A DNA stretch of 64,000 bases from an uncultured Bacillales bacterium (GTDB lineage: Bacteria; Bacillota_I; Bacilli_A; RFN20; CAG-826), in the NCBI GenBank assembly GCA_947302535.1, contig CAMYVX010000003.1:6593-70592 (forward strand). Reading direction: 5' to 3'. The notes beneath the pieces are model-generated. The model searched no databases. It saw only the letters and a list, made by a program, of their open reading frames with translations, and had not been told where the DNA came from. The position numbers and the translations under genes were made by a program. This document shows, piece by piece, positions 21,522 through 63,899 of the stretch; position 1 is the stretch's first letter; each line of letters starts with the position of its first letter.

Positions 21522-21713
21522 AATGTCCCTCCTTTTTATAGATTCACTAATGACTCGCTATTAAGGTAACCGAAGTTTTTATAGAACCTTTTCTATGCGG
21601 TTGTAGCTAGTGAGGCGACAACGCTAGTAATATAACAAAAGTTATAAATAATAATCAACTAAAATTTTTAATTAATTAAACAAAGAGGCTAAAAAAGTCC
21701 GTGCAAATACTCT

Positions 21714-22694: not shown

Positions 22695-25271
22695 TTATAG
22701 AGAAGCTAACTTCTTCTTAAGTTCTTCTAAGACAAGACGATGTTTGGCTAATTTTTCCTTTTCTAGTTCCACTTTATCTTTAGGAGCTTTAGCTAAGAAG
22801 TTCTCATTACCAAGCATCTTTTCGCCACGCATTATTTCATTTTCTTCCAAGGCAATGTCTTTTTCTAGTTTGGCTCTTAGTTCACCACTATCAACATTGC
22901 TATAAATAGTCATTTGTCCAAGAGGATAGTTCTTGATTTCTCCTTGCTTGTTTTGTAAATCGCCAAGTTTAGAGAAAGTAAACCTTTCTAGATAAACATT
23001 AAAGTCTTCAAATAATGTTTTATTAGTTTTTAAGCTTAATTCTAATTTAGCATTAGGTGCTAATTTGTTAAGAATCTTATAATTACGAACATCTTTAATT
23101 AAATCAAATAAGAATTCGACTTCTTCATCGTGTTCTTTATCAATTAATTGAGGATGATATTTTGGATAAGATTCAAGCATGATGGAATCTAAATGTTTAG
23201 GAAGATTCAAATATAATTCTTCAGCAATAAATGGGGTATAAGGATAAATCAAAAGAATAATATTCTTTAAGCAGTGATATAAAACGTGATAAGTTGCGTT
23301 TTTCTTTCTTTCATCATCGCTAGATAAAGCCACTTTAGACATTTCTAGATATTGAGAGCAGAAATCATCATAAACGAAATTATATAAATGCGTACTAGCG
23401 GCGTTGAAGTCATATTTTTCCATATTGCTTTCAACATTCCTAATTGTTTCTTCTAAACGATTAACAATCCAATGGTCCATGCTTGATAAGCACACCATCT
23501 TTTCTTCATTAAAATCGCTTGGTAAAACGCTTAAAACATAACGCGCGCTGTTCCATATCTTATTTAAATAGTTCGCGCTAGAGACGACCTTTTCTTCGAT
23601 ATATCTCATATCTTGTCCTGGAGTGGAATTAGTAGTTAAGAAGTATCTTAAAGCATCCGCTCCATAAGTATCGATAACCGCAATTGGATCAACGCCATTA
23701 CCTAAGGTCTTAGACATTTTTCTACCTTTTTCGTCTCTTACTAATCCATGGATAACGACTTTCTTAAATGGTATAGACTTTGTCATCTCTAAAGATTGGA
23801 AAATCATTCTTGAGACCCAGAAGAAAATAATGTCATATCCTGTCACTAAAACATCAGTGGGGAAATAGCGTTTAAAATCTTCGCTACTAGTATTAGGCCA
23901 ACCGAGTGTTGAAAACGGCCATAAAGCAGAAGAGAACCAGGTATCAAGAACATCTTCTTCTTGAATGTAATTCTCCATATCCTTAGGAGGTTCAATAGAA
24001 ACAATGCAATCACCTGAATCTTTATGGTAATAAGCAGGTATACGATGTCCCCACCATAATTGACGAGAAATACACCAATCATCAACTTTTTCCATCCATT
24101 GGCTAAACACCTTAGCAAAACGAGGTGGAATAAAGTTTACTTTATTTTTGCCTTTTTGATTAGATAAAGCTTGGTCCGCTAATGGGCGCATTTTTACAAA
24201 CCATTGTTTGGAAAGCATTGGTTCCACAACAGCATTACTTCTTTCAGAATGTCCCACTGGGTGAACAATTTCTTCCATCTTCACAAAGTTACCATCTTTT
24301 TTAATATTCTCAATCAATGCTTCGCGGCATTCAAAACGGTCCATACCTTGATAGACACCACACTTTTCATTCATAGTGGCGTCTTTATTAAAGATAATTG
24401 GTTTTGGGAAATGATATTTTTCGCCAATTAGGAAGTCGTTCGGATCGTGAGCTGGCGTACACTTCATAGCACCTGTACCAAAACTTAAATCAACATATTC
24501 ATCAGCGATGATAGGTAAAACATCTCCGTTCGCTGGATTAATAACCTTCATTCCTACATATTTGCTGTAGCGTCTATCCTTAGGATTCACCACTACACAA
24601 ACGTCACCAAACATGGTTTCTGGACGTGTTGTAGCGACGATTAATTTCTCATTACTATCAACAATTGGATAGGAGAAATAATACATGTAGCCTTTATCAT
24701 CTTGGTGAATTACTTCCACATTAGAAAGGGCGGTTTTTTGTACCGGATCCCAGTTAATAATTCTTTCTCCGCGATAAATAAGTCCCTTATTATATAAATC
24801 CACAAATACAGTTCTAACAGCGAAATTAAGTCCTTCATCAAGAGTGAATCTTTCTCTTGAATAATCTAAAGCAAGACCCATTTGTTTCCACTGTTCATGG
24901 ATGTTATTAGCGTATTCTTCTTTCCATTCCCAAGCGGTCTTGAGGAAGTCTTCTCTACTAATTTTCGTTACATCCACGCCATTTTTACGGAGTTTTTCCA
25001 TAACTTTGGCTTGAGTAGCAATACCAGCATGGTCCATTCCAGGAAGATATAAAGTATCAAATCCTTGCATCTTTTTATAGCGGATAATGATGTCTTGAAT
25101 CGTTGTATCCCAAGCGTGACCAAGATGTAATTTTCCAGTAACGTTTGGTGGAGGAATAACAATGGTAAACGGCTTTTTAGAAATATCTCCAGCTTTAAAA
25201 TAACCTTTATTTTTCCAAAGCTCATATTTACCTTTTTCAACTTCTTTTGGATTATAACGTTTTTCTAGCAT
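22695..25271 (-). CDS. valS: Valine--tRNA ligase
   Basis: 858 aa; HIGH (HLGHAW) and KMSKS (KMSKTLGN) motifs, editing domain, C-terminal coiled coil. Confidence 0.95.
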   Translation of the reverse strand: MLEKRYNPKEVEKGKYELWKNKGYFKAGDISKKPFTIVIPPPNVTGKLHLGHAWDTTIQDIIIRYKKMQGFDTLYLPGMDHAGIATQAKVMEKLRKNGVDVTKISREDFLKTAWEWKEEYANNIHEQWKQMGLALDYSRERFTLDEGLNFAVRTVFVDLYNKGLIYRGERIINWDPVQKTALSNVEVIHQDDKGYMYYFSYPIVDSNEKLIVATTRPETMFGDVCVVVNPKDRRYSKYVGMKVINPANGDVLPIIADEYVDLSFGTGAMKCTPAHDPNDFLIGEKYHFPKPIIFNKDATMNEKCGVYQGMDRFECREALIENIKKDGNFVKMEEIVHPVGHSERSNAVVEPMLSKQWFVKMRPLADQALSNQKGKNKVNFIPPRFAKVFSQWMEKVDDWCISRQLWWGHRIPAYYHKDSGDCIVSIEPPKDMENYIQEEDVLDTWFSSALWPFSTLGWPNTSSEDFKRYFPTDVLVTGYDIIFFWVSRMIFQSLEMTKSIPFKKVVIHGLVRDEKGRKMSKTLGNGVDPIAVIDTYGADALRYFLTTNSTPGQDMRYIEEKVVSSANYLNKIWNSARYVLSVLPSDFNEEKMVCLSSMDHWIVNRLEETIRNVESNMEKYDFNAASTHLYNFVYDDFCSQYLEMSKVALSSDDERKKNATYHVLYHCLKNIILLIYPYTPFIAEELYLNLPKHLDSIMLESYPKYHPQLIDKEHDEEVEFLFDLIKDVRNYKILNKLAPNAKLELSLKTNKTLFEDFNVYLERFTFSKLGDLQNKQGEIKNYPLGQMTIYSNVDSGELRAKLEKDIALEENEIMRGEKMLGNENFLAKAPKDKVELEKEKLAKHRLVLEELKKKLASL

Positions 25272-25490
25272 AATCTTTCCTCCAAAAATAAAACGTCCTC
25301 TCTAAGGACGCTATACGCGCGGTACCACCTTAGTTCACTTATTCAGTGCACTTCATTAACCTATTTCGCTAGGCAGCTATCCTCCAAAGCGACCTTCGCT
25401 TATTCTTTTAGCCAAGCTTCCACCATCCTCGGCTCTCTAGATAAAAGAGATAAGTTACTCCTCTTCTTCAACGGAACAAATAAATTATAG
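25272..25490 (-). promoter_or_regulatory. T-box leader (tRNA-sensing riboswitch) of valS
   Basis: Minus-strand sequence contains the T-box core AACTAAGGTGGTACCGCGCG. It is followed by a terminator hairpin CGTCCTTAGAGAGGACG plus TTTTATTTTT just upstream of the valS start. Confidence 0.75.
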
Positions 25491-30708: not shown

Positions 30709-30986
30709 ATATTAGTATTTTGTTAGTAATAAATTAGTAGTTATTAATATTTTATATTAAATTGCGTAGGTTAACTTTTTTTGAGCATTTTTATATATAA
30801 CCTTCGAAGTTCAACGAATAATCTCTATTTAAAATCGCAATTAATGCAATTTTGACAAACTGTTTTAACGGTGATTATTCACACTACTACACCTCTAATT
30901 TACTAACTATTTTCCTCCTTTGTGGCTATATTATATCATGTTTATTTCCTCTTAACGCGAATATATATAAGGAGTATAATTCTCGT

Positions 30987-31625
30987 ATGCTAAGAAAAGA
31001 CATTGATCAGTTTTTATCTACACTACCAAGTGACGTTACTCTAGTCGCGGCTACTAAGTATGTCGACTCCACTACTATGAGAGAAATGTTTGCTCATCAC
31101 ATAACTAACTTTGGAGAAAATAGAGTTGATTCTTTTTTATCAAAGTATAACGAGCTCAAAGATTTGCCAATAAAATGGCATTTTATCGGTCACCTGCAAC
31201 GAAATAAAGCTAAACATGTAATTAATCAGATTGATTATTTACATTCCTTAGATAGCCTTTCTTTAGCGGACCTAATTAATAAGCACCGTTCCACTCCTTT
31301 AAAGTGCTTTATCGAAGTCTCTATCAATCATGAAGAAAGTAAGAATGGTGTATTAATAGAAGACTTATCAAATTTCTTTTCCTCAGTTATTAAATATCCA
31401 AACATTGAAATAGTCGGATTGATGATGATGACAATATCATCCTCTTCTTCAGAAGAAAAAAGAGAGCAATTCCATAAATTAGTAATTATAAAACAAGAAC
31501 TAGAAAACAAGTTCAATACAAGAATCCCTTATCTATCCATGGGTATGAGTGATGATTATCAAGAAGCTCTTAAAGAAGGAGCCACTCATATTCGATTAGG
31601 AAGAATACTATTCAGTGATAAATAG
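30987..31625 (+). CDS. yggS: PLP homeostasis protein YggS family
   Basis: Start placed at internal ATG 30987 (RBS aaggagt 8 nt upstream; 213 aa, typical YggS length) rather than the ORF-track start 30852; VTLVAATKYV Lys context. Confidence 0.8.
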   Translation: MLRKDIDQFLSTLPSDVTLVAATKYVDSTTMREMFAHHITNFGENRVDSFLSKYNELKDLPIKWHFIGHLQRNKAKHVINQIDYLHSLDSLSLADLINKHRSTPLKCFIEVSINHEESKNGVLIEDLSNFFSSVIKYPNIEIVGLMMMTISSSSSEEKREQFHKLVIIKQELENKFNTRIPYLSMGMSDDYQEALKEGATHIRLGRILFSDK

Positions 31626-31696: not shown

Positions 31697-32347
31697 ATGA
31701 AAATACTTATTGGCGAGAATAATCGCGAACTTCTTCATACCCTCCAAAGGGGATTAGACCACTATCAAATGACCTCTGATATTGTTTTTGATGGGGTCCA
31801 AACATTAGAAAAGTATTCAAATAATAAATATGATTTATTACTTCTTGATGATTCTTTAGCAAGGATATCCGGAAATGATGTTAGTAAAGAAATAAGAGAG
31901 AATAATAAAACCATTTCTCTTATCATCATGAGTAATCAAAGTGAAATTAGTGAAAACATACTTCTATCCAATTCGCATGTTGATGATTTTATCACTAAAC
32001 CATTTAAGCTCATCCAACTTGTAGAAACTATCAATCTATTAACTGCCTTAAAAGGGAAAGGAAAAGATATCCATCTAGGGGATTTCCTTATCAAACAGAA
32101 TTACCTAGAACTAGAAAAAGATTCTTCGGCAAAGATTATCTTACATGAATATTACATTATTTCTTCATTAGAAGAAAAATCATATATAACCCACGAAGAG
32201 TTATTAAAAAGATGTCCTAAAATTCAAAAGGGAAGATTGGAATTATTCATCAAAACTATCAATATTAAACTCCATAACATCGGTTCATCATATGAAATAA
32301 CTTTCGAAAAAGGGAAAGGATTCAAATTGGCAAAAATTCATGATTAA
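31697..32347 (+). CDS. OmpR-family response regulator with atypical receiver (Asp-Asp pair replaced by Asn-Asn)
   Basis: 216 aa; receiver has LLLLDD (acceptor Asp), S at the Thr87 position and TKPF Lys, but N-terminal GENN where the E-D-D acid pocket is expected. C-terminal winged helix. Confidence 0.8.
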   Translation: MKILIGENNRELLHTLQRGLDHYQMTSDIVFDGVQTLEKYSNNKYDLLLLDDSLARISGNDVSKEIRENNKTISLIIMSNQSEISENILLSNSHVDDFITKPFKLIQLVETINLLTALKGKGKDIHLGDFLIKQNYLELEKDSSAKIILHEYYIISSLEEKSYITHEELLKRCPKIQKGRLELFIKTINIKLHNIGSSYEITFEKGKGFKLAKIHD

Positions 32348-33569
32348 AAAACTACGTTTCAAATTTATCTTATATTCGGTATTATCGGTTTTTGCTTTAC
32401 TTGTTCTCATTCTCAGCACGATTAATATCGTGAATTTCAATATGGTGGCTTCTGATGCTGATAATATAACTCAAATGATCGCGGATCATGATGGCGGATT
32501 TGAGCCCAATAAAGAAAGGGAACCTAGACCCGGAAGTATGGGTCCAGATTCACCTGATACTCCGATGAGTACTAGATATTTCACTGTTCGTCTTAGTAAA
32601 AACGAAGATATTGCCTATGAGCTCATCCATTACAATATCTCTGCTTTAAGTAAAGAGACTTGCTTAAAATGGGCCGAAGAGTTATCAAAGAACAAAGCTA
32701 AGACTGGGTGGAAAGATTTCTCTTACCGCTATCGTCTTTATGACGATAAAAATAACAAAGATGTCTCTTACGTCACTGTTATTGATCAAGGAAGAGAATT
32801 GTTACCATCTTTACGCGTTCTTATCGCTTCAGTTATTGGAGGAGTAAGTGGAACACTGATTACCTTCTTAGCCATTCTTCTAGTCTCTAAAAAGTTCATT
32901 AAACCAATTGAAGATACTTATCATAAACAACAACGCTTTGTTGCCGATGCTTCCTATGAATTAAAAACTCCTTTAACTATCATCTCCATGAATAATGAAA
33001 TATTAGAACTTGAACAAGGAGAAAATGAAGAATGTAAAGCTATCTCTAAAGAGATTAAACATTTAAACAAAGTATTAGATAATCTTGCTAACTTAGCTTT
33101 ATTAGATGGAACGCTTCCAGAAAAGATAAATAAAAATAACTTTGTTATTTCTGACTCTGTTAATCAAATCGCAGAAAAATACATCTCTTCATTTAATAAG
33201 TTACATAAGAAATTAGATGTAAATATTGTCCCTGATTTAGTCTATAAAGGCGATAAAGATATGATTATGCAATTAATCGATATTCTTTTAGATAACGCTT
33301 TAAAATATTCAACTAGCGAGGCTTCCTTAGATCTTCGTAGAGAAGATGAAAGAATTATCATCATTCAAACCAATGATAGAAAAGACATTAAAGACGGGCC
33401 ATTAGATATCGTCTTTGAAAAATTCTATCGTTTTGAAGCTGACCGTAATAGCAAAGTCGATGGCAGCGGTCTTGGTTTATCCATCGCTAAAGATATTGTA
33501 AATCTTCATAAAGGTCGTATTTACGCGAAAGGAAATGAAGGCAAGTTCATCATCAAAGTTGAACTTTAA
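32340..33569 (+). CDS. Sensor histidine kinase-like protein with H-box His replaced by Tyr
   Basis: 409 aa; two TM segments flanking a ~130-aa extracytoplasmic domain; H-box reads ADASYELKTPL (consensus S-H-E-L-R-T-P-L); N box LLDNALKYS and G2 GSGLGLSIAK present; 8-nt overlap with the RR gene. Confidence 0.8.
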   Translation: MIKKLRFKFILYSVLSVFALLVLILSTINIVNFNMVASDADNITQMIADHDGGFEPNKEREPRPGSMGPDSPDTPMSTRYFTVRLSKNEDIAYELIHYNISALSKETCLKWAEELSKNKAKTGWKDFSYRYRLYDDKNNKDVSYVTVIDQGRELLPSLRVLIASVIGGVSGTLITFLAILLVSKKFIKPIEDTYHKQQRFVADASYELKTPLTIISMNNEILELEQGENEECKAISKEIKHLNKVLDNLANLALLDGTLPEKINKNNFVISDSVNQIAEKYISSFNKLHKKLDVNIVPDLVYKGDKDMIMQLIDILLDNALKYSTSEASLDLRREDERIIIIQTNDRKDIKDGPLDIVFEKFYRFEADRNSKVDGSGLGLSIAKDIVNLHKGRIYAKGNEGKFIIKVEL

Positions 33570-33596: not shown

Positions 33597-34319
33597 ATGT
33601 CAGACGCGATCACAGTCATGAAACGTGTGGAACTTAAATATATCTTGTCTAAACAGCAGACAGATTATTTAATCGAGCATTTAAAAGGACATATGGAAGT
33701 TGATCAATATGGCTTAACTTCTATTGCCTCGCTTTATTATGATACGCCTGACTATCGTTTAATTCGTACCTCAATAGAAAAACCGAAGTTTAAAGAAAAG
33801 ATCCGCCTTAGGTCTTATGGTCTAGCTACAGAAAAAAGTAACGTCTATCTTGAATTAAAAAGGAAATATGATGGAATCGTTTATAAACGACGAGCGGAAA
33901 CGACTATTCCTGCAGTTAAAGCCTTCTTCAACGGAGAAGGAGATATATGCGCTAATGGGCAGATAGCCAAAGAAATTACTTATTTCCGAGATTATTATAA
34001 AAATCTAGTCCCCTCATGCTTAATCATATACGATCGAACCGCTTATATAGAAAAAGAAGGGGACTTAAGGCTCACCATCGATGCTCGTCCTAGATATCGA
34101 GTTGAAGACTTAGTATTAACTAAAGATATGGAAGGAATACCACTTTTACCAGAAGGGTGTTGTATCCTCGAAGTTAAAGTACAACAGGCTTTGCCTCTAT
34201 GGCTTATCAAGATATTTAAAGAAGCAGATATTAAAATCAATACTTTTTCTAAGTATGGAGAAGCATATAAACAACAAATGAACAAATTAGTTTCAGAAAG
34301 GATTATCAATTATGTTTGA
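33597..34319 (+). CDS. VTC-domain (polyphosphate polymerase / triphosphate-tunnel-like) protein
   Basis: 240 aa; N-terminal RVELKYIL...LYYDTPDY pattern characteristic of bacterial VTC-domain proteins; basic residues throughout. Confidence 0.7.
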   Translation: MSDAITVMKRVELKYILSKQQTDYLIEHLKGHMEVDQYGLTSIASLYYDTPDYRLIRTSIEKPKFKEKIRLRSYGLATEKSNVYLELKRKYDGIVYKRRAETTIPAVKAFFNGEGDICANGQIAKEITYFRDYYKNLVPSCLIIYDRTAYIEKEGDLRLTIDARPRYRVEDLVLTKDMEGIPLLPEGCCILEVKVQQALPLWLIKIFKEADIKINTFSKYGEAYKQQMNKLVSERIINYV

Positions 34320-35004
34320 ATCAGTATTCGCTAATAACACCGACGTCGCACTCGTATTTGCGATGGCAGGAATTGCCGTAGTTATTGGTATCTTATCAAC
34401 CTTCTTATTCTCTTTAAGAATTCGTTCTACCGCCGGGTTCTTTGTAACAGCATGTTTATTACCGCTTGTTGTCTCACTTGCTATTTGCTTAGTAGGAGCC
34501 TTCTTACAAGGAGCCACCAGTGTGACAGCAAGAATAGTAACTATCGCTGTGGCTTTAGGATTAATTAGATTTAGAAGCGCTCAAGGAAAAGCGGAAGAAT
34601 TATTAGCCCTTTTATCAAGTGTTGTAATTGGTCTAATCCTTGGATTAGGTTTCCTCCTTTTAGGTGCTATATTTGGTATTGCTATTCCTATAGTCTTCTT
34701 ATTGGTTAGTTATTTACCATTCTTTGAACACAAAAGATTTGCTAGAGAAAAATTATTAAAGATTACTATCCCTGAATCTTTAGATTATTCTGATGTCTTT
34801 ACTGCTACTTTTGATCACTATTTAAAAGAAGTCGAATTAGTGGAAGTTAAGACTACTGGTATGGGTTCTATGTTTAAACTCTCATATCGAGTCGTTATGA
34901 AAAACCAAAAAGAAGAAAAAGAAATGATTGATGAACTCCGTATTAAAAACGGTAATTTAGAGATCTCTTTAGTCCCATATAGTGAACCTCTTGGAAAACT
35001 ATAA
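34312..35004 (+). CDS. DUF4956-family membrane protein (usual partner of bacterial VTC proteins)
   Basis: 230 aa; four N-terminal TM helices plus soluble C-terminal domain; 8-nt overlap with the VTC gene. Confidence 0.65.
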   Translation: MFESVFANNTDVALVFAMAGIAVVIGILSTFLFSLRIRSTAGFFVTACLLPLVVSLAICLVGAFLQGATSVTARIVTIAVALGLIRFRSAQGKAEELLALLSSVVIGLILGLGFLLLGAIFGIAIPIVFLLVSYLPFFEHKRFAREKLLKITIPESLDYSDVFTATFDHYLKEVELVEVKTTGMGSMFKLSYRVVMKNQKEEKEMIDELRIKNGNLEISLVPYSEPLGKL

Positions 35005-35018
35005 TAGGAGGTAATTTT

Positions 35019-36695
35019 ATGAAAAAAAGCCTATTTTTAGCCACTTCTTTACTTTTAACATCCCTTTTAGCGGGTTGTGGCTGTAACGCTAATTCAAGCA
35101 AAAGTAATGACGATGATGATAGCCAAACAGTCGATGTCGTCACACCAGACGAAGATATGTTTGGTGACGCTGATAAAAAGATTATTGATTCCGTTGATAC
35201 CGTAATTACTTTAAGCGATAGCGGTGCTGATATTTCTGGAAGCACAAGTGGAGCTTCCTATTCTTCAAATCTCGTTACTATCTCTTCTCCAGGGTATTTT
35301 GAAATAACTGGAAGTAGTAACAGTGTCACCATTCTCGTTAATGATTCTTCAAAGAAAGGTAATATCTATCTTCTTTTAAACGGGGTCTCTATTACTTCAT
35401 CTAGTAAGGCTTGTATCCTCATTAATTCCGCGGATAAAGTTCTTATCCAACCAAAAGAAGGAACAATTAATAAGTTAACTAGCACTTTTACTAGTTCTTA
35501 TTCCTATGGATCTACTAATGTGGACGCAACCGTCTATTCTCGCGATACAATAACATTCTCTGGAAACGGAGATTTAACCGTTACCGGACAATTAAAGGCC
35601 GTTGAATCTAAAGATGATATGCGTATATATGGAGATGGAGGTTTTATCTTTACTTCTAATAAGGATAAATGTTTAAACATCAACGATTCAGTTCGTATCG
35701 GTGGTAATCCTGGTGTATATGTGAACGGAAATGAAGACGGCATTCATGTTGAAAATTCTAGTGGGGATAGTTTCTTCTATATGGAATCTGGCACATTAAC
35801 CATTAATGCTTCATATGACGGTATTGATGTTTCTACAGAGGCCACAACTTTCTCTGGCTATACGAAATTAGTCGCAGGAACAATAGATATTGTTACTACT
35901 TCAACTTCTTCAAGTGCATCAAGAAAAGGAATTAAATGTTTAGGCGATATCTATGTTGGCAAAATGGATATCACCATTAACTCTAAGGATGATGGCTTCC
36001 ATAGCGGCGCTTCTATTTCCTTTACTGATGGAACTTATGATATTTCAAGCGGAGATGACGCTATTCATGCGGATAATACTTTCCATATGTCCGGAGGAGC
36101 AGCCGTTGTCAATAAAGCTTCTGAGGGCGTTGAAAGTAATCATGTTGATATCGTTGGAGGCTCTCTTACTATTTATTCCTCTGACGACGGTATAAACGCT
36201 TCTAAAAAGATAGATGAATCACCAACAATCAAAGTTACTGGTGGCTATTTAGATATTACGGTTGGTTCTGGGGATGTTGATGGTATTGATTCTAATGGTA
36301 CCTTCACTCAAACAGGAGGCGTTGTTATTACTAGAGGCGCTCCTAATTCTACAGGCGGAACCGCCACTGGTATTGATACTGATGGCGGTATCAATCTTAG
36401 TGGAGGCACATTTATTTGTGTTGGCCCATATGAAGGAACTTTAACCAAAGACAGTGGAGTTTATGGATTTGGTTTAGGTACAACTACTGGTGGACCTGGT
36501 GGAGGTCCCGGAGGACCAAAAAGAGCTAGCAGTATTACCTTAACTAGCGGTACTTGGACCGTTTCAGGAATTGATATTAGTTTTGCTATTACAGGAAACT
36601 ATTACGGTATCAGTGTTTATTCTTCTGATTTCTCAAGTGGATCAACTTATACCGTTTCTAGCGGTTCTTCTTCCTATTCAGGAACAGCCTCATAA
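35019..36695 (+). CDS. Secreted lipoprotein with repetitive Ser/Gly/Thr/Asp-rich beta-rich domain (carbohydrate-binding-domain-like)
   Basis: 558 aa; lipobox LLAGCGC; recurring GxDxxGxxT-type segments; GGPGGGPGGP low-complexity stretch; RBS taggagg. Confidence 0.65.
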   Translation: MKKSLFLATSLLLTSLLAGCGCNANSSKSNDDDDSQTVDVVTPDEDMFGDADKKIIDSVDTVITLSDSGADISGSTSGASYSSNLVTISSPGYFEITGSSNSVTILVNDSSKKGNIYLLLNGVSITSSSKACILINSADKVLIQPKEGTINKLTSTFTSSYSYGSTNVDATVYSRDTITFSGNGDLTVTGQLKAVESKDDMRIYGDGGFIFTSNKDKCLNINDSVRIGGNPGVYVNGNEDGIHVENSSGDSFFYMESGTLTINASYDGIDVSTEATTFSGYTKLVAGTIDIVTTSTSSSASRKGIKCLGDIYVGKMDITINSKDDGFHSGASISFTDGTYDISSGDDAIHADNTFHMSGGAAVVNKASEGVESNHVDIVGGSLTIYSSDDGINASKKIDESPTIKVTGGYLDITVGSGDVDGIDSNGTFTQTGGVVITRGAPNSTGGTATGIDTDGGINLSGGTFICVGPYEGTLTKDSGVYGFGLGTTTGGPGGGPGGPKRASSITLTSGTWTVSGIDISFAITGNYYGISVYSSDFSSGSTYTVSSGSSSYSGTAS

Positions 36696-36711
36696 AATAA
36701 ACAAAAACATG

Positions 36712-36742
36712 ACAAAAGCGCTCATTTTGAGCGCTTTTTTGT
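36712..36742. terminator. Bidirectional rho-independent terminator
   Basis: Hairpin aaagcgctcattttgagcgcttt flanked by an A-run and a T-run; sits between convergent genes. Confidence 0.7.
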
Positions 36743-36744
36743 GA

Positions 36745-63766: not shown

Positions 63767-63899
63767 TAGCCTACTTTTTGGTGCCCCTTGCCAGAGTCGG
63801 ACTAGCGTCAAAGCATTACCATTGCTCCGTACTACCGTTGTACTAAAGGGGCATAACGCAAGAATTATAAATATAAAGAAGAGTAATATCAAGAAAAAG

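Follow-up and report, generated by a model that had tools for sequence, protein, structure and literature searches.

Proteins that retain the fold of a histidine kinase or of a receiver domain after losing residues needed for phosphotransfer are recognised categories, comprising pseudo-histidine kinases such as DivL and PsmA on the one hand and pseudo-receivers on the other. Only a handful of histidine pseudokinases have been investigated; the examples that we found are DivL and PsmA. The pseudo-histidine kinase concept of Collins and Childers, as cited in a 2025 review, covers proteins with a histidine kinase fold that lack one or more histidine kinase functions (PMC12632262). The same review defines a pseudo-receiver as a protein recognised as a receiver that lacks at least one of five active-site residues, describes its on/off switching as ‘a mystery’ and indicates that the characterised examples are nearly all orphans. 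Here we analyse a co-encoded pair, a response regulator (RR)-like gene followed by a histidine kinase (HK)-like gene, that lies directly upstream of VTC-domain and DUF4956-like genes in a stretch of 64,000 nucleotides from an uncultured Bacillales bacterium (GenBank assembly GCA_947302535.1, contig CAMYVX010000003.1, positions 6,593 to 70,592 of the forward strand; hereafter the window). We favour, with a probability of roughly 0.6, the reading that this pair is a functional and selected derivative of an EnvZ/OmpR-class two-component system (TCS), dedicated to the VTC-DUF4956-Cthe_2159 operon and working without His-to-Asp phosphotransfer. Searches of open-access papers and preprints found neither a co-encoded, co-degenerate kinase/receiver pair nor any mention of this HK family.

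DivL of Caulobacter crescentus shares with the window HK a HisKA/HATPase_c core with a tyrosine in the histidine column, and both keep the fold of the dimerization and histidine phosphotransfer (DHp) and catalytic ATP-binding (CA) domains together with the RR-docking surface. The DivL structure 4q20 was found among both the sequence and the fold matches of the window HK. DivL has no kinase or phosphatase activity, yet it binds an RR via the normal docking surface, and its Tyr550 is described as peculiar to DivL and as important if the protein is to function optimally (PMC4211667). The two proteins differ in architecture and in partner. DivL is cytoplasmic, contains multiple PAS domains and binds ATP weakly, whereas the window HK has two predicted transmembrane (TM) segments, an extracytoplasmic domain and conserved ATP-pocket motifs. 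The partner of DivL, DivK, comes from a separate locus and is a single-domain RR of the normal, phosphorylated kind; that of the window HK is co-transcribed and a degenerate OmpR-type protein. The window HK thus falls outside the DivL type on both counts, and its tyrosine is not conserved in its orthologs. PsmA of Streptomyces venezuelae is likewise HK-like without the H-box histidine, does not autophosphorylate and works via protein-protein interaction. In contrast to the window HK, it is a cytoplasmic hybrid polarisome component that also lacks the E/DxxT/N motif and has neither a dedicated pseudo-RR nor a link to VTC.

On the regulator side ChxR, HP1043, GlnR, RitR and NblR are pseudo-receivers that, like the window RR, combine a receiver with an incomplete catalytic quintet and a winged helix, and the RitR and HP1043 structures were among the RR fold matches. 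The window RR differs from these proteins in being coupled to an HK-like partner, in losing just the second acid of the DD pair and in having a winged helix beyond the reach of Pfam. The D10N substitution in Acinetobacter baumannii PmrA (structure 9of3) exchanges Asp for Asn in the same OmpR-family receiver column, and its remaining sites correspond to those of the window RR (D52/S79/K101 versus D51/S79/K101), but PmrA D10N is a point mutant from the clinic, in a TCS that is normal in other respects and has an active kinase. CmrRST of Clostridioides difficile combines a pseudo-receiver regulator with a normal TCS and so resembles a seven-gene architecture found in relatives of the window locus (see below); it has no pseudo-kinase, whereas no canonical TCS was detected in the 64 kb that hold the window locus. 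The remaining comparison is with canonical TCSs that are themselves linked to VTC genes (L006, L098 and L005, and the divergently oriented L014, L016, L017, L038 and L071). These share HK architecture, sensor domain (45-53% identity) and synteny with the window, but carry FISDASHELKTPL in the HK, E-D-D-[ST]-K in the RR and a Pfam-detectable Trans_reg_C domain, where the window pair has Y and E-N-D-S-K. Such canonical sister systems in the same gene context allow direct comparison.

Active sites of the kinase-like and regulator-like proteins

The HK-like gene (32340-33569, + strand) encodes a protein of 409 aa without a phospho-His. Pfam recognised its HisKA (residues 197-256, E=1.1e-8) and HATPase_c (1.4e-15) domains, and in phmmer alignments to HK853, VicK and CpxA Tyr206 stood opposite the phospho-His (‘fvadasYelktpl’ versus ‘fianisHelrtpl’). 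This bore out the first-pass annotation of this DNA, which had placed a tyrosine at that position of the H box ADASYELKTPL. The Tyr206 codon, TAT (32955-32957, + strand), is a single transition away from CAT, and the column is His in 156 of 262 relatives. The DHp and HATPase_c folds are therefore present and the phospho-acceptor His is not. His195, 11 residues upstream of Tyr206, was considered as an alternative phospho-His and rejected, the column being R, E or K in relatives. The observation that had been expected to overturn the tyrosine assignment, a different His in the acceptor column, was not made, and no conserved substitute His was found across the aligned relatives. Because Tyr206 fills the site and no conserved alternative exists, the HK-like protein is predicted to be incapable of autophosphorylation at the canonical site, and at the sequence level it fits the pseudo-histidine kinase concept.

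The ATP-binding motifs are largely preserved. As had been claimed, the N box (LLDNALKY, with Asn319) and the G2 box (GSGLGLS, with G377 and G379) are intact. In the G1 box, which the first-pass annotation had passed over, N-D-R-K-D takes the place of DxGxG; its Asn345 is also found in 100% of the His-bearing relatives. A degenerate G1 box as the mark of a dead ATP site was rejected because His-bearing relatives have the same G1; the divergence is a family-wide trait and uninformative on activity. The protein also keeps Glu207 and Thr210 of the E-x-x-T phosphatase motif (YELKT). Its AlphaFold2 (AF2) model (pLDDT 91.6) matched WalK, CpxA and HK853 best, with DivL among the other matches. The model has a long TM1, an outer alpha/beta domain (approximately residues 50-150), TM2 and a normal CA domain. 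The outer domain is PAS/PDC-like, with strands at 80-86 and 92-99, a helix at 105-116 and strands at 122-125, 129-135 and 142-149. TM2 is continuous with DHp helix 1 (151-226), without an intervening HAMP domain.

The RR-like gene (31697-32347, + strand, 216 aa) encodes a receiver domain (Pfam Response_reg, E=2.7e-16) and a predicted, strongly diverged OmpR/PhoB-type winged helix. Alignment to DrrD (‘iliGENNrel’ versus ‘vlvVEDErdl’) gives the quintet E7-N8-D51-S79-K101. Glu7 fills the first acid position, and Asn8 (codon AAT, 31718-31720, + strand; a single transition from GAT) replaces the metal-binding Asp of the second acid column, which corresponds to CheY D13 and PmrA D10. The motif GENN had been read as the loss of both acids of the pocket, a change from DD to NN. 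Since Asn9 lies outside the quintet, only one catalytic acid is lost; the replacement of an acid by Asn stands. The acceptor column is retained as Asp51 (GAT, 31847-31849, + strand), and so are Ser79 and Lys101, all three in agreement with the earlier description, and the switch residue Phe98. With a receiver fold in which the DD-D-T/S-K quintet is incomplete at its second acid, the protein can be classed, from its sequence, as a pseudo-receiver by the published definition. One conspecific variant on a 3.4-kb Logan contig (P0144) carries Val at the acceptor position (LLLLVDS). This single observation could reflect a dispensable acceptor Asp or else an assembly error.

Assignment of the RR to the OmpR type held for the overall architecture, although Pfam Trans_reg_C gave no match at E<0.01. 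The protein matched NCBIfam TctD (residues 1-213) and PDB BasR (1-212) over its full length, and could be aligned along its entire length with canonical regulators of the OmpR family (25-30% identity). An AF2 model (pLDDT 90.8, pTM 0.86), whose input alignment was dominated by canonical homologs, superposed on the whole of PrrA, RitR and MtrA with a TM-score of ∼0.7. From these matches the RR appears to be of OmpR/PhoB architecture, its winged helix having diverged strongly. Substitutions have removed the conserved Arg and Trp of the recognition region, and DNA binding by the protein is putative.

The two genes overlap by 8 nt (32340-32347, + strand; ATGATTAA), the stop codon of the RR gene and the start codon of the HK gene both lying in this segment. 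The overlap had been noted before, and it implies translational coupling of the pair.

Inheritance, selection and paired loss in relatives

All six full-length HK variants (90% clusters drawn from NCBI, ENA and Logan assemblies) keep Y206 within ADASYELKTPL, and all five RR variants obtained in the same way keep GENN. The syntenic Logan contig L092 has the same HK and RR residues, with an HK gene that is 97.6% identical; it was reached via the RR, the exact window HK sequence having matched nothing in the contig index. L092/L093 and the window differ at 2.4% of nucleotides. In comparison with L092, the RR gave a dN/dS of 0.20 and the HK one of 0.19, values that resemble those of VTC (0.17) and Cthe_2159 (0.26); DUF4956 gave 0.10 and Lon 0.06. 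Neutrality was rejected for the RR (p=4e-4) and for the HK (p=2e-5); purifying selection acts on both genes.

The closest ortholog (L001-L004) shares with the window the upstream YggS-like gene and a 303-aa gene. In L001 the HK has Ser in the His column and Ala at the H+4 position, and the RR quintet is E-G-D-T-M, with Met in the Lys109 column. The next relative, L005 (53%), has the HK His and an RR with E-D-D-S-K. The first-pass annotation had proposed that orthologous operons be inspected for the same two states. Both sites are indeed lost in L001, but as Ser and Gly, and L005 is canonical. Among the genes of the cluster, the RR has changed fastest relative to L001 (41% identity, versus 56% for the HK, 78% for VTC and 83% for DUF4956). 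The gene order RR-HK-VTC-DUF4956(-Cthe_2159) is widespread in Firmicutes, being co-directional in L001-L011 and divergently oriented in L014, L016, L017, L038 and L071.

Loss of the phospho-His is common across the HK family. It was found in 51 of the 120 best database matches, in 57 of 150 representatives of 50%-identity clusters and in 106 of the 262 members of at least 350 aa (∼40%). A contig search with generic H-box/F-box peptide patterns returned mostly unrelated kinases among 80 loci, with ∼13 full-length relatives and a handful with VTC. In the 106 His-less members the His column is occupied by K (39), R (22), S (15), N (10), F (4), Q (4), A (3), Y (2), L (2) and D (2), and by M, T and I once each. 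The suggestion of tyrosine-based signalling therefore finds no support, because the column is hypervariable and no particular side chain is required: Tyr occurs in only two of these members, and the closest ortholog has Ser.

Other parts of the protein are strictly maintained. Among the His-less members the ATP-pocket residues N319 (100%), N345 (97%), G377 (100%), G379 (98%) and L380 (99%) are as conserved as in His-bearing members. The outer sensor domain is more conserved in His-less than in His-bearing HKs: R79, G123, W124, R130, D149, R152 and E153 are present in 100% of the 106 His-less proteins and R132 in 90%, whereas the first seven are variable in His-bearing HKs. The window HK has all seven invariant residues. 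In contrast, the Thr at H+4 is mostly lost in His-less members, with V, L or I in 67%. The conserved sensor residues span HK residues 79-153 (approximately 32574-32798), and the Arg-rich outward face that they form could bind an anion, for example phosphate or polyphosphate.

A neighbour-joining tree computed with the His column omitted placed the window HK and P0002 within one large His-less clade; this tree, star-like and unbootstrapped, is the sole basis for that placement. The His-bearing P0145 and P0155 were nested in the His-less clade, and a His-bearing sister clade (P0003, P0004 and others) lay outside. The near relatives of the window pair carry, at the HK and RR sites, Y/N, S/G, F/Q, M/H and N/N. 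Because they differ at both sites and a single step from the canonical codon would give most of these states, the His may plausibly have been lost independently several times.

The state of the partner was surveyed in a metagenome scan seeded with the well-conserved VTC protein, a seed that does not select on kinase state. The sample comprised the best 80 loci of at least 600 matches, whose neighbouring genes were scored with family hidden Markov models. Together with the other fetched loci it yielded 42 non-redundant, complete HK/RR pairs adjacent to VTC. A His-less HK was paired with an RR lacking the Asp13-equivalent in 38 of the 42, and an HK with the His was paired with a canonical E-D-D-[ST]-K regulator in three; the one remaining pair (L133) combined an HK His with a degenerate RR. 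Co-loss in this adjacent set was significant (Fisher p=3e-4), although the pairs are not phylogenetically independent. All eight TCSs in the same loci that do not immediately adjoin VTC were canonical. RR columns depend on the alignment for matches of 20-60 bits and were checked by eye; the columns were confirmed in a separate MAFFT alignment, in which the usual pseudo-RR begins MKILxA[DAS]PxRDLL, with Pro at Asp13. Asp57 is kept in 23 of the 38 degenerate partners and Lys109 in four, the window RR among these. Sixteen of the 38 are shorter than 180 aa, mostly receiver-only proteins of 116-158 aa with no DNA-binding domain. The window pair has the features of this VTC-linked group, namely adjacency to VTC-DUF4956, loss of both the His and the Asp13-equivalent, and the sensor residues.

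In the exceptional locus (L133:344-2171) the HK His stands in an H box, FIKSVNHEFRLPL, that is otherwise of the His-less type, and the partner is a pseudo-RR with A-P-D-V-Y.

A recurrent seven-gene order consists of a canonical RR, a canonical HK, Cthe_2159, a pseudo-RR, a His-less HK, VTC and DUF4956. It was seen in L106, L110, L111, L115 (89-6383), L127, L129, L137/L138 and L155, and its canonical HK is a paralog of the same family with the His present. L124 and L164 have a canonical TCS, Cthe_2159, VTC and DUF4956 and no pseudo-pair. As the seven-gene loci hold a canonical paralog and L124 and L164 only the canonical TCS, this distribution suggests that the pseudo-pair arose by duplication of the operon’s own TCS. 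The VTC-linked family of doubly degenerate pairs is apparently large and undescribed. It provides an abundant natural case of a pseudo-kinase and a pseudo-receiver that are co-encoded and co-degenerate under selection, and it makes phosphorylation-independent signalling from kinase to regulator directly testable.

Proposed mechanism and rival explanations

If the pair works without His-to-Asp phosphotransfer, the DHp domain would take a conformation dictated by the sensor domain and by the nucleotide state that the CA domain is in. The RR-like partner would read this conformation by direct binding, an allosteric coupling without phosphoryl transfer that would be comparable to DivL-DivK or to the kinase-driven allosteric activation of response regulators. 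In the window genome the winged-helix RR probably autoregulates the operon independently of phosphorylation, which is the simplest output because the winged-helix fold is apparently kept and a canonical TCS is not nearby. In the wider family the pseudo-pair would more likely act post-translationally on the adjacent VTC/DUF4956 machinery, with the canonical paralog, where present, handling transcription, since many partners are receiver-only and a canonical TCS heads the operon. The earlier proposal that the module controls the downstream VTC/DUF4956 genes can thus be kept in part: the linkage is strongly conserved, but control is read from gene order, and many relatives have an RR without a DNA-binding domain and a separate canonical TCS upstream. 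The pseudo-pair also draws attention to a conserved regulatory partner of bacterial VTC/DUF4956 genes, for whose clusters our search of open-access papers and preprints found no function; it gave nothing on DUF4956 together with VTC, and gene lists only on bacterial VTC.

Several considerations weigh against a selected pair that has dispensed with phosphotransfer. The PmrA D10N protein, altered in the same column, is still phosphorylated, more slowly (PMC12654582). The earlier description of a phosphorylation-independent module accordingly gains from the co-loss of HK and RR sites in the 42 pairs, but overstated the case for a dead RR. Residual phospho-signalling is possible, with acetyl phosphate or a non-cognate kinase as the source and the HK as phosphatase, and the window pair is among the least degenerate, keeping Glu207 and Thr210 in the HK and D51, S79 and K101 in the RR. 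An ATP pocket so strictly conserved may serve to catalyse a reaction on another substrate and not simply to bind nucleotide. The dN/dS values of the RR and HK are based on just 22 and 30 substitutions, and the fast evolution of the RR would also be expected from partial relaxation of constraint. Gut and rumen metagenomes, like close VTC relatives, are over-represented in the VTC-seeded sample. Finally, the evidence is comparative throughout.

Some HisKA kinases retain phosphatase activity once their His is mutated, and the main rival for the window pair is a kinase-dead sensor of this kind. The RR would receive a phosphoryl group at Asp51 from acetyl phosphate or from a non-cognate kinase, and the HK would do no more than bind the RR and dephosphorylate it upon its signal. 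This explanation, which we consider unlikely but worth taking seriously, stays viable because the window pair keeps the E-x-x-T motif together with D51, S79 and K101, with Phe98 also in place, and because PmrA D10N is merely slowed and can be activated by BeF3- (PMC12654582). The residues concerned are poorly kept elsewhere. Ortholog L001 has lost both the Thr at H+4 (Ala) and the RR Lys109 (Met), one conspecific RR variant is D51V, H+4 is V, L or I in 67% of His-less HKs, and only 4 and 23 of the 38 partners have Lys109 and Asp57. DivL, the precedent for an H-to-Y exchange, is also without phosphatase activity (PMC4211667). Catalysis of a non-canonical kind, resembling that of GHKL Ser kinases, in which the ATP pocket phosphorylates Tyr206, another residue in the RR, or VTC/DUF4956, would account for an N box, G1 Asn and G2 box that are 97-100% conserved in His-less members, above apparent structural need and in contrast to the poor ATP binding of DivL (PMC4211667). 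We judge it improbable, as a column that holds any of 13 residues, with Tyr in just two of 106 members, cannot make Tyr phosphorylation the family mechanism, no conserved alternative His and no conserved Ser, Thr or Tyr acceptor was identified, and 15 of the 38 RR partners no longer have Asp57.

The rapid evolution of the RR, its DNA-binding domain missed by Pfam and the single D51V variant could also mark a decaying remnant, a non-functional pair nearing pseudogenisation in an operon that is constitutive or regulated otherwise. Such decay is very hard to reconcile with frames that are intact in every assembly, with a dN/dS of ∼0.2 and the rejection of neutrality, and with the survival of the pair both in the ortholog (56%/41% identity) and across dozens of distant loci; sensor and ATP-pocket residues at 97-100% in His-less members and two confident AF2 models point the same way. 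A sequencing or assembly error in one genome would be in keeping with two single transitions (CAT to TAT and GAT to AAT), but it is refuted by independent assemblies, since the same residues recur in the six HK and five RR variants and in L092/L093. The substitutions are inherited, as had been argued when random error was discounted at the outset.

Extending the preferred reading, that of a selected pair without phosphotransfer, to the family as a whole gives a more speculative picture, which we regard as possible but doubtful. VTC-adjacent pseudo-pairs would form a widespread, undescribed and obligately paired class, derived from a canonical TCS and repurposed as ATP-binding, signal-sensing regulatory subunits of a bacterial polyphosphate-polymerase-like VTC/DUF4956 membrane machine. 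If so, the pseudo-pair would be the functional counterpart of the SPX regulatory domain in eukaryotic VTC, a canonical paralog, where there is one, would take care of transcription, and the strictly conserved Arg-rich sensor face could sense the exported anionic product.

Operon structure and flanking features

Downstream of the pair the operon continues on the + strand with a 240-aa VTC-domain protein (33597-34319; Pfam 1e-38), which begins 27 nt past the HK stop and resembles the catalytic domain of polyphosphate polymerase. A DUF4956-like membrane protein of 230 aa follows (34312-35004), overlapping VTC by 8 nt, and after a further 14 nt a Cthe_2159-family beta-helix protein of 558 aa (35019-36695) with a lipoprotein-type N-terminus (…LLAGC). 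Because this N-terminus, MKKSLFLATSLLLTSLLAGC, constitutes a lipobox and the N-terminal part also matches, weakly, the acidic lipoprotein LytA, the Cthe_2159-family protein is probably a surface-anchored beta-helix protein. The + strand operon is ended by a bidirectional terminator-like hairpin (36714-36738, both strands) with an 11-bp stem and T-runs on either strand. The operon forms a + strand island amid a mostly − strand region.

No second HK or RR, and likewise no canonical TCS, was detected elsewhere in the 64-kb window. A scan for sigma-70 promoters in the 71-nt gap 5′ of the RR gave no convincing site, overall counts being below shuffled expectation, and an Rfam scan placed no regulatory RNA inside or adjoining the operon. 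In two loci with a His-bearing HK the HK and VTC genes are separated by ∼380-460 nt (L006:7272-7736 and L007:7272-7655), compared with 10-40 nt beside His-less HKs; this wider gap could hold a separate promoter or regulatory region.

At the upstream flank, the YggS-like (Ala_racemase_N) open reading frame (ORF) at 30852-31625 (+ strand), 5′ of the RR, is listed with a TTG start and 257 aa. As its homologs are called at 220 aa in L092 and 210 aa in L001, the true start probably lies further downstream. L001 has an extra 219-aa gene on the opposite strand between the YggS-like gene and the RR, which therefore puts the YggS-like gene outside the conserved operon. At the downstream flank, L092 carries after Cthe_2159 an extra 453-aa AAA_14/DUF4143 gene (L092:13185-14546) that is absent at window positions 36696-36744. 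By this comparison, it is a presumed strain-level insertion or deletion just past the operon terminator.

Further from the operon, a T-box leader (25301-25480, − strand) lies upstream of an 858-aa ORF (22695-25271) whose L092 counterpart carries valyl-tRNA synthetase domains; like the L21 leader listed next and the sources of the homologs, it fits an origin in a low-GC Firmicute. The window also contains a ribosomal protein L21 leader and a tRNA, at 21540-21612 and 63782-63852, both on the − strand.

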